Origin: Mobula hypostoma
Taxonomy: Eukaryota
Reading direction: 5' to 3'
Assembly (NCBI RefSeq): GCF_963921235.1
Contig: NC_086097.1
Span: 5,394,001 to 5,458,000, forward strand
DNA: 64,000 bases
Positions within the stretch are counted from its first letter, which is position 1; each line of letters starts with the position of its first letter. This document shows, one piece after another, positions 10,925-52,900 of this stretch. The translations under genes were made by a program, and so were the position numbers. A model generated the notes under the pieces. The model searched no databases and was not told the origin of the DNA. It saw only the letters and a list, made by a program, of their open reading frames with translations.

Positions 10925-12128
10925 TATAGGGGGTGACCAGGGAGGGTGGCACCTCTGGTAAAGGGCTTGTCCTGTCCATACTGGACAGCTCACTCACCTT
11001 TGGACCCCACCGGAAGCTCAGCACTCACCTCTGGCTCTAAGTAGTTGTTTGGTTGTGACAGTGACCACACTCCAGTACACTGCTTCCACTGCCAGGCCAA
11101 ACCAGGTGAGGGTGGCGGCAGGTCTCATACTCCAATGAGATGCCTGTCCTAGGACGTGAAGCAGCTTTGGCAGGTTGACCCTTGTTTCCATCCAGGGGGT
11201 CAGTGTGAACATGGTGGAGGATTACGAATACCTGAGGATACGAATTGACAATATACTGGACTGGTCAAAGAACACTGAGGCTGTCTAAAAGAAGGTTCAG
11301 AGCCGTCTCTATTTCCTGAGGAGACTGACGTCCTTTAACATCTGCCGGACGATGCTGAGGATGTTCTACGAGTCTGTGGTGGCCAGTGCGATCATGTTTG
11401 CTGTTGTGTGCTGTTGTGGGGCAGCAGGCTGAGGGTAGCAGACACCAACAGAATCAACAAACTCATTCGTAAGGCCAGTGATGTTGTGGGGATGGAACTG
11501 GACTCTCTCACGGTGGTGTCTGAAAAGAGGATGCTGTCCAAGTTGCATGCCATCTTGGACAATGTCTCCCATCCACTACATAATGTACTGGTTGGGCACA
11601 GGAGTACATTCAGCCAGAGACTCATTCCACCGAGATGCAACACAGAGCGTCATAGGAAGTCATTCCTGCCTGTGACCATCAAACTCTACAACTCCTCCCT
11701 TGGAGGGTCAGACACCCTGAGCTGATAGGCTGGTCCTGGACTTATTTCCTGGCATAATTTACATATTACTTTTTAACTATTTATGGTTTTATTACTATTT
11801 AATTATTTATGGTGCAACTGTAACGAAAGCCAATTTCCCCCGGGATCAATAAAGTATGACTATGACTATGTGCAGTTGAGATCTAACAGCCAGGAAGACA
11901 GTACTGCAATGCTCTGTGGAGAGCGAAGGGAAAGACAAGGCACAGAAGAAGTCATGGTCATCCACTGCAACCAAGGAAGACTCCAGTTTGTGATGCTTGT
12001 TCGAAAACTGGATCCAGACTTCTGATTTCAGGACAGTGGAACTGCCCCAGTGCAACGACTTTTGCACATTGAAAACTCTCCCACACAAGTTTCCTGTCAT
12101 CATCGGGCACGATGGGCAACCATCATTA
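10925..12128 (+). mobile_element. RTE-like non-autonomous element family 2, split by a Rex1-like insertion
   Basis: 10925-11150 and 11880-12128 are homologous to the reverse complement of 50847-51420; ends cacgatgggcaaccatcat. Confidence 0.6.
11175..11870 (+). mobile_element. Rex1/Babar-like LINE 3' fragment with (GACTAT)n tail
   Basis: YLRIRIDN.LDWSKNTEAV..QSRLYFLRRL, HPLHNVL..RCNTERHRKSFLP; near-identical to 42466-42820. Confidence 0.8.
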
Positions 12129-49900: not shown

Positions 49901-52900
49901 CTCCAGTCGCGGTGACATCCTCAGTGCGTAGTCGTTGGTGTTTCTCTCTGGGGGTGCTTGTGTTCATGGAGACCCCTGTTCACTTGCTTTGATCCTGATT
50001 GGCGAGCCCTTCAGTTGACCTTTGAATTCTATTGCCTCACATGTCTTAAGAGCCTCGACTGGTGAGGAAACATCTGCAAGCTAATTGGCAGGCTCGGCAA
50101 ACGTGGCAACATCAAAAAATAAACTGTGCAGGTACAAAAGAGAAAATAATAATCATTATGCATACAGTGGCATGCAAAAGTTTGGCCACCCCGGTCAAAA
50201 TTTCTGTTACTGTGAATAGTTAAGTGAGTAAAGATGAACTGATCTCCAAAAGTCATAAAGTTAAAGATGAAACATTCTTTTCAACATTTAAGCAAGATTA
50301 GTGTATTATTTTTGTTTTGTACAATTTTAGAGTAGAAAAAAAGGAAAGGAGCACCATGCAAAAGTTTGGGCACCCCAAGAGATTTGAGCTCTCAGACAAC
50401 TTTTACCAAGGTCTCAGACCTTAATTAGCTTGTTAGGGCTATGGCTTGTTCACAGTCATCGTTAGGAAAGGCCAGGTGATGCAAATTTCAAAGCTTTATA
50501 AATACCCTGACTCCTCAAATCTTGTCCCAACAATCAGCAGCCATGGGCTCCTCTAAGCAGCTGCCTAGCACTCTGACAATTAAAATAAATAATGCCCACA
50601 AAGCAGGAGAAGGCTATAAGAAGATAGCAAAGGGTTTTCAGGTCGCCGTTTCCTCAGCTCGTAATGTAATTAAGAAATGACAGTTAACAGGAACGGTGGA
50701 GGTCAATTTGAGGTCTGAAAGACCAAGGAAACTTTCTGAGAGAACTGCTCGTAGGATTGCCAGAAAGGCAAATCAAAACCCCTGTTTGACTACAAAAGAC
50801 CTTCAGGAAGATTTAGCAGACTCTGGAGATGTGGTGCACTGTTCTAGTTGTTCGTCCATCGTCGTCCATGAAGATCTCAACACCATTATGATGATGATGG
50901 TGGTGTTGAGACTAGCGCTTGATTTGGATTTAAGTAAGGGAGAGTTGTGCAGTATGAGCTTCACTCTCTCTTCCCAATTCCCATCCGGATCCAGTGACAA
51001 GACAATAGTTGCGATGGCTGGGGATGGGACTAGGCGCAGTGGAATACCAGGACATCTTCTGTGTCTTGTCCTGCTCTACGCATTCCAGGATGCTTGCAGA
51101 GACCGCCTTCTTGACCGTTGGACCTTCCAGTGGTCTCGTCCACTCAGTCCATTGGAGTCTGTTTCATATGCTGCGATAGACAACTCTCTTTCTCACCAAG
51201 GGTTTGAGACCCGTCGGCTACCCTCACCTGGTTTAGCCGGCTTGTCAAAGCCGTTGCCTGGGGTGTGGCTGCTGTCACATGCAAACAGCTACGGAGACCC
51301 ACAGGTCAGAGCTGAGTGCCAGGTGGGGACCAAAGGTGGACAACCTGCCTGAAAAGGACACGATATGTTCCCCCACCAGAGGTGCTAGCCTCCCTGACAC
51401 CCCATACATCCCACCCCATACACTGTTCTACTGTGGAGCGACACCTGCACAGATATGACCATCATGGAAGAGTCATCAGAAAAAAACCTTTCCTGCATCC
51501 TCACCACAAGATTCAGCATCAGATGTTTGCAAAGGTACATCTAAACAAGCCTGGTGCATTTTGGAAACTAGTCCTGTGGACTGATGAAGTTAAAATAGAA
51601 TTTTTTGGCCACAATGAGCAAAGGTACATTTGGAGAGAAAATGGTGCAGAAATTCATGAAAAGAACACCTCTTCAACTGTTAAGCATGGGGTTGGATCGA
51701 TCATGCTTTGGGCTTTTGTTGCAGCCAGTGGCGGAGAACATTTCACTGCTAGAGGGAAGAATAAATACATTTAAATACCAGAAAATTCCGTAAGCAAACA
51801 TCACACCGTCTGGAAAAAAGCTGAAGATGAAAAGAGGATAGCTTATACAACAGGATAATGAACCTAAACACACCTCAAAATCCACAATGGACTACCTCAA
51901 GAGGCGCAAGCTGAAGGTTTTGCCATGGCCGTCACAGTCCCCCGAATCGAAAATCTGTGGATAGACCTCAAAAGAGCAGTGCATGCAAGACGGCCCAAGA
52001 ATCTCACAGAACTAAAAGCCTTTTGCGAGGAATAATGGACGAGAATCACCCAAACAAGAATTGAAAGACTGAGCTGCCTACAGGAAGCGTTTACAAAATG
52101 TGATACTTGCCAAAGGAGGTGTTACTAAGTACTGAACATGCCCGGTGCCCAAAGATTTGCTTCAGGCCCTTTTCCTTTTTTGTTATTTTGAGACTGTAAA
52201 AGATGGAAATAAAAAAGTAATCTTGCTTAAAATATTAAAGAAATGAGACATCTTTAACTTTATGCTTTTGGAAATCAGGTCATCTTTTACTCACTTAGCT
52301 ATTCACAGTAACAGAAATTTTGACTGCGGTGCCCAAACATTTGCATGCCACTGCAAAGAAGCAATAATCATTGAGAACATTTGAAAGTAAGTCCATAGGT
52401 TGTGGGAACATTTAAAACTTAGGAGGAGTGAAGTTATCAAGAGCTTGATGGTTGAGGTGGAATAACTCTTTGTGAACCTGGTAGTGGGGGTCCTGAGGCT
52501 CCTCTACCTTCTTCCTCATGGCAGCAGCAAGAAGAGAGCATGTCCTGGATGGTGGGTGGGTGGAAATGTACTTAGGCTGGTGTTAAATCTGTGGGTTAGG
52601 GTTAGGGTTAGAGTTAATTATCTCAAAATAATTAAATAGGCAGTTTGAATAATTCAGTGCATGTTTATAGGCCTAAAACACAACAACACTGTTTTTGTAA
52701 GTTGTAGGGTATTAATCATATATAGTAATAAAGTATTTGGAAAATCTATGAAACTTATAAATTGGATGTTTTTGTTATAAATCAAGTTTGATGCCTTTTT
52801 TCTCCTCTGTAGGTGATATACAAGTCTGGGCTGGAAGTAAATGAGGAAGGAACAAAATCTGCTGCACTTAGAAATTACCAATTAATCAAAAGGTCTCTTC

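Follow-up and report, generated by a model that had tools for sequence, protein, structure and literature searches.

An abundant non-autonomous retroposon family of Mobula hypostoma carries a candidate HDV-like ribozyme head with a helix in L3

Does a short dispersed retroposon in the genome of Mobula hypostoma begin with a self-cleaving ribozyme? The question is raised by an element of 574 bp on the minus strand (50847..51420) of a 64,000-nt stretch of contig NC_086097.1 (assembly GCF_963921235.1, forward-strand positions 5,394,001 to 5,458,000; hereafter the window). An earlier reading of these letters, made from the sequence alone, had proposed a ribozyme like that of hepatitis delta virus (HDV), its loop L3 bearing an additional hairpin, at the 5' end of this element. 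HDV-like ribozymes at the 5' ends of R2, R4/Dong, RTE, Baggins, and L1Tc elements are established (PMC6765202, PMC8256844, PMC3774820, PMC4035085). We call the element in the window the window copy and its family famW, and read it on the minus strand; the window also holds the head of a copy of an older family, fam1. The famW consensus proved to be a strong computational candidate for an HDV-like ribozyme core with a non-canonical L3, and we put the probability that the source RNA self-cleaves at the first of its P1 units at roughly 0.7.

A majority consensus was derived from 28 famW copies (loci L001 and L004-L030; L002 and L003 were dropped as duplicates). From base 1 onward it reads GGGGTGT (P1), AT, a second GGGGTGT, and then a joining segment, J1/2, of about 98 nt, after which P2 (CTCACCTG) forms eight perfect pairs with its 3' strand P2' (CAGGTGAG) and is followed by a T and P3 GGC. 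Next come TCCCCGTA, the hairpin GCTGTT-TGCATGC-GACAGC, a G, the 3' strand of P3 (P3') GCC, and P1' ACACCCC, followed by GGGCAA, P4 (CGGCTT-CGAC-AAGCCG), GCTAAAC (J4/2), and P2'. The HDV order P1-J1/2-P2-P3-L3-P3'-P1'-P1.1-P4-J4/2-P2', a nested double pseudoknot, is present in full. P1 comprises 7 bp (GGGGUGU/ACACCCC) with its 3' strand directly adjoining P3' GCC, and a P1.1 of 2 bp lies between the CC of L3 and the GG right after P1'. L3 starts with UCCCCGU in famW and UCCAAGU in fam1, and J4/2 GCUAAA is identical in both lineages; that the fold recurs in family 1 (10929-11110, plus strand), as the sequence-only reading had noticed, was borne out. Both the GG for P1.1 and the P3 pairing, whose absence from the consensus that reading had named as fatal to its proposal, are there. 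Its guess that AGGCAA in the window copy arose by CpG decay also agrees with the consensus GGGCAA, the first P1.1 3' position being G in 21 of 28 famW rows (A:6, C:1).

The part of the fold that leaves the canon is L3. A compact HDV L3 measures about 7-8 nt, and the R2 motif in PMC5035012 implies 7; here the loop is 28 nt long and not compact, with a 6-bp hairpin closed by a 7-nt loop inserted just before P3'. A genome pattern search for a short-L3 form (at most 8 nt after the G) returned 0 places; every copy has the hairpin. We also considered an alternative register, in which the hairpin is P3 and its 7-nt loop is L3, and rejected it: P2 would then lie 12 nt from P3 and P3' 4 nt from P1', and P1.1 would be reduced to a single pair. 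The insertion point, after the L3 G plus two bases and before P3', is presumably where the L3 bases of HDV face the solvent, which makes a helix at this place plausible, if unproven, by analogy. The hairpin loop (window 51277-51283, minus strand) consists in the famW consensus of a U and the palindrome GCAUGC, and reads GCAUGU, one CpG decay away from it, in the window and in most fam1 copies; such a self-complementary loop could support kissing-loop dimerisation.

What the sequence-only reading had picked out in the window copy lies where it was placed: GGGGTGT at 51403-51397, ACACCCC at 51266-51260, the hairpin at 51289-51271, AGGCAA at 51259-51254, a perfect 6-bp P4 at 51253-51238, and GCTAA with its C at 51236, all within a TSD (target site duplication)-flanked 574-bp element. 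The pairs of its P2 are present too, with an internal G.G mismatch in this copy (CTGACCTG/CAGGTGAG). Its P3, GGU at 51299-51297, was out of register: in the family register P3 occupies 51300-51298, reads GGG, and has a broken third pair, and the L3 UCC corresponds to 51297-51295, which reads UCU. In P1.1 of the window copy U-A replaces C-G and the second pair is C-G; pairing is retained at the first position because the C-to-U change in the L3 start coincides with a G-to-A change at 51259. As the consensus has none of these deviations, neither the mismatch in P2, nor the odd P3, nor the A that precedes GG, they are private mutations of the window copy, which fails the strict HDV descriptor set out below and, with these core mutations, is probably dead. 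Feature coordinates are collected in Table 1.

Table 1. Positions of the features discussed, in window coordinates; "here" is the window copy and "consensus" the famW consensus.
Feature	Position	Strand	Remark
Whole retroposon copy, famW	50847..51420	-	TSD tagaacagtg at 51430-51421 and 50846-50837
Partial extra third copy of the 9-nt 5' unit (TATGGGGT)	51413..51420	-	
Family-level P1 5' strand and family 5' terminus	51406..51412	-	GGGATGT here, GGGGTGT in consensus
Second GGGGTGT unit (P1 of the earlier reading)	51397..51403	-	
J1/2 domain with internal hairpin	51310..51396	-	RNAalifold and pair counts
P2 5' strand	51302..51309	-	CTGACCTG here, CTCACCTG in consensus; 95.1% of cells paired
P3 5' strand, family register	51298..51300	-	GGG here, GGC in consensus
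L3: U-C-(C>U here)-N-N-G-U-A, inserted hairpin 51289-51271, 1 nt	51270..51297	-	hairpin 99.1% paired
P3 3' strand GCC	51267..51269	-	
P1 3' strand ACACCCC	51260..51266	-	
P1.1 3' strand	51258..51259	-	AG here, GG in consensus
P4 hairpin, 6 bp and tetraloop	51238..51253	-	CGGCTT/AAGCCG here
J4/2 GCTAAAC, candidate catalytic C at 51236	51231..51237	-	same in both lineage consensuses
P2 3' strand CAGGTGAG	51223..51230	-	
3' module: 11-bp stem-loop 50911-50875 and tail ...GATGGACGAACAAC	50847..50911	-	(AAC)n next in other copies
Ribozyme-like head of the older fam1 copy	10929..11110	+	single P1 unit; P1.1 and P4 decayed

The head belongs to a large family. Searching the genome (3.48 Gb, 200 contigs) with the famW element gave at least 5172 first-look candidates, of which 40 were scored: three matches (L001-L003; 100, 95, and 91% identical) share a common Tc1 flank, and the remaining 37 are independent and 88-90% identical. 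The intact exact core GGCTCCNNG..GCCACACCCCGG..GGCTAA occurs 1531 times (777+754) in the genome and its reversed control 0 times. With fam1 as the query, 1984 first-look candidates were found, and the 39 matches scored besides the query's own place were 77-83% identical; the tail of the fam1 window copy lies near 11917-12125 (plus strand). A search for 3' ends with the last 78 nt of one copy yielded 1143 candidates, the best 40 of which were scored and were 97-100% identical. From this search we retrieved 30 loci, to which all counts of young copies refer; young copies match the 78-nt tail query at up to 99-100% identity and, along their length, the consensus at 93-98%. Among the 30, 21 are full or near-full length (including L061, which is L024, and L064, which is L021) and 9 are 5'-truncated with unrelated upstream flanks. 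Copies terminate in ...GATGGACGAACAAC after an 11-bp stem-loop, an inverted repeat first noticed in a chance Rfam alignment, and often carry further AAC units; their TSDs reach 13 bp. TSDs, 5' truncations, a 3' simple-repeat tail, and the lack of a reverse transcriptase (RT) open reading frame (ORF), the features of a non-autonomous non-LTR (long terminal repeat) retroposon, were all found. By these features the window holds a copy of such a retroposon, of about 565 nt, and the combination of TSDs, truncations, and (AAC)n tail without an RT ORF is read as the signature of target-primed reverse transcription of the LINE (long interspersed nuclear element) type acting on a non-autonomous element. 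While family structure, TSDs, and truncations were seen directly, the LINE partner is one that we infer: the best 40 of the 1143 tail matches contained only the short element or 5'-truncated copies of it and no autonomous LINE.

Two of these loci, L070 and L071, are 99.4% identical over 1 kb of flank and hold a 5'-truncated copy with bases 180-217 inverted just upstream, which we interpret from the sequence as a twin-priming-type 5' inversion inside a segmental duplication. A LINE fragment in the window (11170-11870, plus strand) was considered as the partner and rejected: read by eye, it is a nested insertion unrelated to the family and has a short duplication of its own. This 5'-truncated fragment splits the fam1 copy, contains the C-terminal region of an RT with stops, ends in (ATGACT)n, and has a duplication of about 8 bp on its two sides. 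One 47-aa piece of it is similar to a protein cluster whose members carry PF09004 in 16% of cases (score 0.91). A LINE fragment of the window also resembles a protein cluster classed as Eukaryota, one member of which is assigned to Chordata, a weak pointer to a chordate host.

The 5' ends of full-length copies are uniform. Where a famW copy has a TSD of 8 bp or more, it starts at most 2 nt from the first G of GGGGTGTATGGGGTGT, and 14 of the 21 young full-length copies begin exactly at the first unit (GGGG, T/C, G/A, T). In the other 7 of these, 1-14 nt are missing or replaced, and none of the 21 begins at the second unit. Because young copies start at the first unit and none at the second, it is with the first unit that the RNA used as template begins. 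The G at 51403, which the sequence-only reading had taken to set the 5' end, is thus not the family terminus, which lies 9 nt upstream (51412-51406); the unit duplication it had described stands, and the P1 unit is the middle of three in the window copy and the first of two in the consensus. A 5' end this precise suits a fixed transcription start just as well as it suits ribozyme processing. Copies differ in how many 9-nt GGGGTGTAT units they carry at the 5' end: the older copy L022 has one, the consensus two, and L007 and the window copy (51397-51420) three. [quoted passage not shown] For R2, tandem P1 duplications at the 5' junction, with effects on the place of cleavage and on J1/2 growth, were proposed by Eickbush and Eickbush (PMC3774820). 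When the fold is constrained, the partner of the second GGGGUGU is the 3' end of J1/2, and this stem (columns 27-37 with 109-118) is 88% paired in the alignment of both lineages described below. Its columns 32-113 are U.G in famW (UG:29) and U-A in fam1 (UA:20), and at column 111, where famW has U, fam1 has a G with which an inserted fam1 C can pair (by eye). In this model the closing stem of J1/2 probably masks the internal unit, which would leave the terminal unit free for P1.

In order to ask how often such a fold would arise by accident, we wrote a descriptor comprising G1 and a 7-bp P1 (G.U allowed), J1/2 of at most 130 nt, a P2 with 6 bp or more, P2 and P3 separated by 0-1 nt, a P3 of three Watson-Crick pairs, an L3 of UCCNNG... 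and at most 35 nt, GG right after P1', P4 of at least 4 bp, and CNRA before P2'. The famW consensus satisfies it twice, once with P1 placed at base 1 and once with P1 at base 10, and the majority fam1 consensus fails at GG. Among 53 heads extracted by anchors (L001, L002, L031, L033, L040, L051, and L057 were left out), 14 of 28 famW heads and 1 of 25 fam1 heads pass, as do 10 of the 21 young full-length copies. Both strands of the 64,000-nt window gave 0 matches. First-order Markov sequence with the dinucleotide content of the window (30.6 Mb) contained no full pass either: 3269 places reached P3/L3/GG, 123 of these also P1, 5 also P2 and CNRA, and 0 were complete. These results bear on the idea that a GC-rich repeat unrelated to ribozymes merely resembles a loose HDV pattern by chance. 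The window copy taken alone would be compatible with it, as it fails the strict descriptor and could be fitted only with a mismatch in P2, a G.U pair in P3, and L3 shifted, and Rfam is empty. Yet the consensus moves every one of these deviations to the canon, the simulated sequence gave 0 matches, P4 and J1/2 covary, and P1 sits at base 1, and we regard a chance resemblance as very improbable.

We then compared the two lineages in an alignment of 54 heads (28 famW and 26 fam1; P1 set to the first unit). Standard pairs occupy 90.4% of cells, compared to 29-50% when partners are slid by 1-3 columns, and the covariation score is 0.113 as opposed to 0.081 +/- 0.004 after shuffling, a value reached by 0 of 500 shuffles. 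Pair 2 of P4 is G-C in famW (GC:26) and C-G in fam1 (CG:8, with the CpG-decay products UA:6 and UG:6), and at pair 5 one lineage has U-A where the other has U.G. A hairpin predicted in J1/2 by RNAalifold contains two compensatory pairs between the lineages (GC:28/AU:23 and AU:26/GC:24). P1, P2, P3, P1.1, and the stem of the L3 hairpin are the same in both lineage consensuses, which is conservation without covariation; the covariation that the sequence-only reading had put forward as a check is thus seen in P4 and J1/2 and not in P1, P2, P3, or P1.1. In CpG-corrected lineage consensuses the core (P1, P1.1, P2, P3, the U and G of L3, and four J4/2 bases) differs at 0 of 46 positions versus 28 of 147 elsewhere (Fisher p = 4.5e-4). 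A genome pattern search for a sister lineage with another P1 (two changed P1' positions) gave 8 places, 6 decayed copies and 2 random ones; since the changed pattern gave only such places, the genome is without a sister lineage bearing another P1.

A number of observations weigh against a self-cleaving head. P1, P2, P3, and P1.1 lack covariation support because they are invariant between the two lineages, the contrast between core and remainder is modest at the p value given because much of J1/2 is equally conserved, and the pairing percentages mostly mirror the source sequence because genomic copies decay neutrally. The descriptor was drawn up from canonical features only after the consensus had been seen. 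Rfam 15 gave 0 matches for the whole window at gathering scores; over 50700-51600 at E<=10 it gave no HDV-type match and 5 weak ones, all to unrelated families, and for a consensus-like copy at E<=10 again no HDV-type match. These negatives agree with the sequence-only reading, which had expected standard descriptors to miss the fold. The helix in L3, adjoining the active site, departs from the canon. A G.U wobble at the cleavage site is important in HDV-type ribozymes, and the pair here is G1-C, not G.U. A role of that wobble is indicated by a reference title quoted in PMC13635239. An HDV-type core with an L3 helix was not found in the literature compared (Ruminski 2011, PMC3308841, and Webb & Luptak 2011, PMC3256349, lay outside the comparison). 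In fam1 the first G of P1.1 is apparently A in the main subfamily (A:18, G:8; 1 TG), an asymmetry that would not be expected from CpG decay alone, and fam1 amplified despite its weakened P1.1. Non-Watson-Crick P1.1 pairs do occur in fast HDV-family ribozymes of C. briggsae and Ackermannviridae according to PMC13635239. Finally, of the sequencing runs that hold the element none is on record as RNA.

Several of these points would suit a head that is a non-cleaving structured RNA or DNA module, such as an internal promoter, a site bound by the protein of the partner, or an internal ribosome entry site (IRES)-like structure, or an inactivated HDV-like descendant whose catalysis was abolished by the L3 helix, with the 5' end set by the transcription start. 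Such a module would account for a J1/2 that is in large part as conserved as the core, for the off-canon L3 insertion and G-C cleavage-site pair, and for the amplification of fam1 with a weakened P1.1. Precedents for further functions also exist, as 77 nt of L1Tc act as both promoter and ribozyme (PMC3383444) and the R2 protein binds the ribozyme pseudoknot (PMC6765202). What this explanation leaves unaccounted for is that all canonical catalytic positions are kept in two lineages (L3 U, CC, and G; GG; J4/2 C-U-A-A), that the 5' strand of P1 coincides with the exact 5' terminus, and that chance would yield a full descriptor match less than once in 30 Mb. We therefore consider a non-catalytic head unlikely, though clearly a stronger competitor than chance resemblance.

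As the element is short, abundant, non-coding, and LINE-dependent, it might also be a SINE (short interspersed nuclear element) with a small-RNA-gene head, whose 5' end is set by initiation of RNA polymerase III (pol III). However, ARAGORN finds no tRNA, Rfam shows no tRNA, 5S, 7SL, or snRNA match, and the famW consensus contains a TTTT run about 70 nt in, which would terminate pol III, and a pol III origin is accordingly highly doubtful. The sequence-only reading had called the element ORF-less, which holds for recognisable coding capacity and not for stop-free frames, some of which are long. The three longest ORFs of a young copy match no Pfam family. An antisense stop-free frame spans nearly the whole element (187 codons in the consensus; a length reached by 27 of 3000 dinucleotide shuffles), and an antisense ATG ORF of exactly 172 aa, matching no Pfam family, is kept in 10 of the 21 young copies (e.g. 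L074:1545-2072, plus strand; in the window 50888-51352, plus strand). A sense ORF at bases 8-340 starts at an ATG between the P1 units (GGGGTGT-ATG-GGG), its 110 codons being kept in 8 of 21 young copies, and a second one, some 92 codons long, begins near base 286 and extends to the 3' end; no Pfam family matches either of them. R2 ribozymes are reported to aid translation initiation.

We return to the self-cleaving head and to whether its fold is energetically accessible. The unconstrained minimum free energy of the 192-nt head of L064, a natural young copy, is -72.5 kcal/mol, and P1 (with the first unit), P4, and the hairpin of L3 are formed in this structure even so. With P2, P3, the hairpin, and P4 forced and the bases of P1 and P1.1 left free, the energy is -67.6 kcal/mol, to which the P1 duplex adds -11.8. 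The pseudoknotted fold is competitive because -67.6 plus -11.8 compares with -72.5 kcal/mol, all energies being without a pseudoknot penalty. A helix-in-L3 HDV-like double pseudoknot at the 5' end of a TSD-flanked non-autonomous retroposon is a credible fold.

The element also extends beyond this genome. Contigs from four other organisms (at least 80% likeness) carry it together with both lineage signatures, CC/AA in L3 and A/G in P4. Among the differences listed (share of at least 20%, 40 of 135), none falls in P2, P3, P1.1, J4/2, or P2', and the single one in P1' (place 1655) is merely L024's own T back to the consensus C; the contigs cover the first 30 nt thinly and show neither starts nor expression. 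A few contigs of runs X1 and X9 (L024:1537-1665) join about base 40 to about base 165 and skip 122-124 nt. Judged by its sequence, this form is a deletion of most of J1/2, P2, P3, L3, and P1' and would have no ribozyme core.

Taken together, the following course is proposed. The element would be transcribed inside a longer transcript or from its own promoter, its head of about 192 nt being the ribozyme. The 5' GGGGUGU would pair with ACACCCC to form P1 around P2 (8 bp), P3 (GGC/GCC), L3 (UCC-NN-G and the 6-bp hairpin), P1.1, P4, and J4/2 GCUAAA. The J4/2 cytosine would cut 5' of G1, and the freed RNA would start at the first base of the family; the ribozyme probably trims the element RNA out of longer transcripts in this way. 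The 3' stem-loop and (AAC)n tail would then be engaged by the RT of the partner LINE for target-primed reverse transcription. Uniform 5' ends, core conservation, and the covariation of P4 and J1/2 are direct observations; we infer cleavage, its site, and the tolerance of the fold for a helix in L3. A more far-reaching proposal is that the L3 helix (P3.1; loop palindrome GCAUGC) and the tandem P1 units, one of them masked, define an HDV-like subclass, invisible to Rfam models and standard descriptors alike, that drives 5' processing of a recently active family of thousands of copies in several species; we offer this tentatively and rate it at slightly less than even odds.

Comparison with known systems places the family close to the ribozymes of R2 (Drosophila, silkmoth, zebra finch) and also of Dong and R4, with which it shares a ribozyme at the 5' end of a non-LTR element and a P1' right after P3/L3. 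The L3 start is UCC-N-C-G-U, as in the R2 motif CCUCCUCGUGG; of the 7 positions in UCCUCGU, the conserved L3 of R2 within CCUCCUCGUGG (Drosophila and zebra finch R2; PMC5035012), UCCCCGU agrees at 6. A long J1/2, 23 to >700 nt in R2, and duplicated P1 units at the 5' junction that can shift or extend the 5' end are further likenesses (PMC3774820). Unlike R2, the family is dispersed with variable TSDs instead of residing in 28S ribosomal DNA, lacks an RT ORF, has a 6-bp hairpin with a 7-nt loop before P3' in L3, a GGC/GCC P3, and a P1 that is wholly element-encoded. Ribozyme-headed non-autonomous elements are known as well, namely the SIDEs of R2 (PMC3414825) and, in Trypanosoma cruzi, NARTc (PMC3185411, PMC3383444), and PMC6765202 makes a general statement to this effect. 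Like famW, SIDEs and NARTc are short and non-coding and combine a 5' HDV-like ribozyme with a retained 3' end that the RT of a partner requires. In contrast to famW, their partners, R2 and L1Tc, are known and share both ends with them, and famW differs in its host genome of 3.48 Gb, its copy number in the thousands, and its L3 helix. In view of these elements the sequence-only reading overstated its case in speaking of an overlooked class. Viral HDV, CPEB3, and drz-type ribozymes share with famW the nested double pseudoknot, the P1-P1.1-P4 and P2-P3 stacks, the J4/2 C, and a 2-bp P1.1 (PMC13635239). From the HDV family in general famW differs in that Rfam models are blind to it, its 28-nt L3 is not compact, its cleavage-site pair is G-C, and its J1/2 of about 98 nt is structured. 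Ribozyme-headed non-autonomous retroposons are therefore already known as a kind, and the L3-helix version was not seen in the literature, nor was a ribozyme-headed family of this type in a vertebrate-type genome (PMC3308841 and PMC3256349 again lying outside the comparison).

The setting of the window copy has a history of its own. It is nested inside a Tc1-like element, and this carrier with the same insertion and TSD is present at no fewer than three places on one contig (L001-L003), in copies 100, 95, and 91% identical; in L003 the far 5' flank is unlike that of the other two composite copies (window 50600-51700). Because at least three Tc1 copies share insertion and TSD, the composite was duplicated or transposed after the retroposon had landed.

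If the head is inactive, it is an ordinary structured retroposon head. If it is active, L3, which search descriptors treat as compact, can accommodate an inserted helix without loss of the HDV fold, HDV-like ribozymes are undercounted across genomes, and an abundant dispersed non-autonomous family joins the short list of ribozyme-processed retroposons. Should the subclass reading hold, standard searches would have missed similar ribozyme-headed SINE-like families. The more than 1500 intact cores are a natural system for ribozyme-defined 5' ends, including the P1-duplication dynamics proposed for R2.

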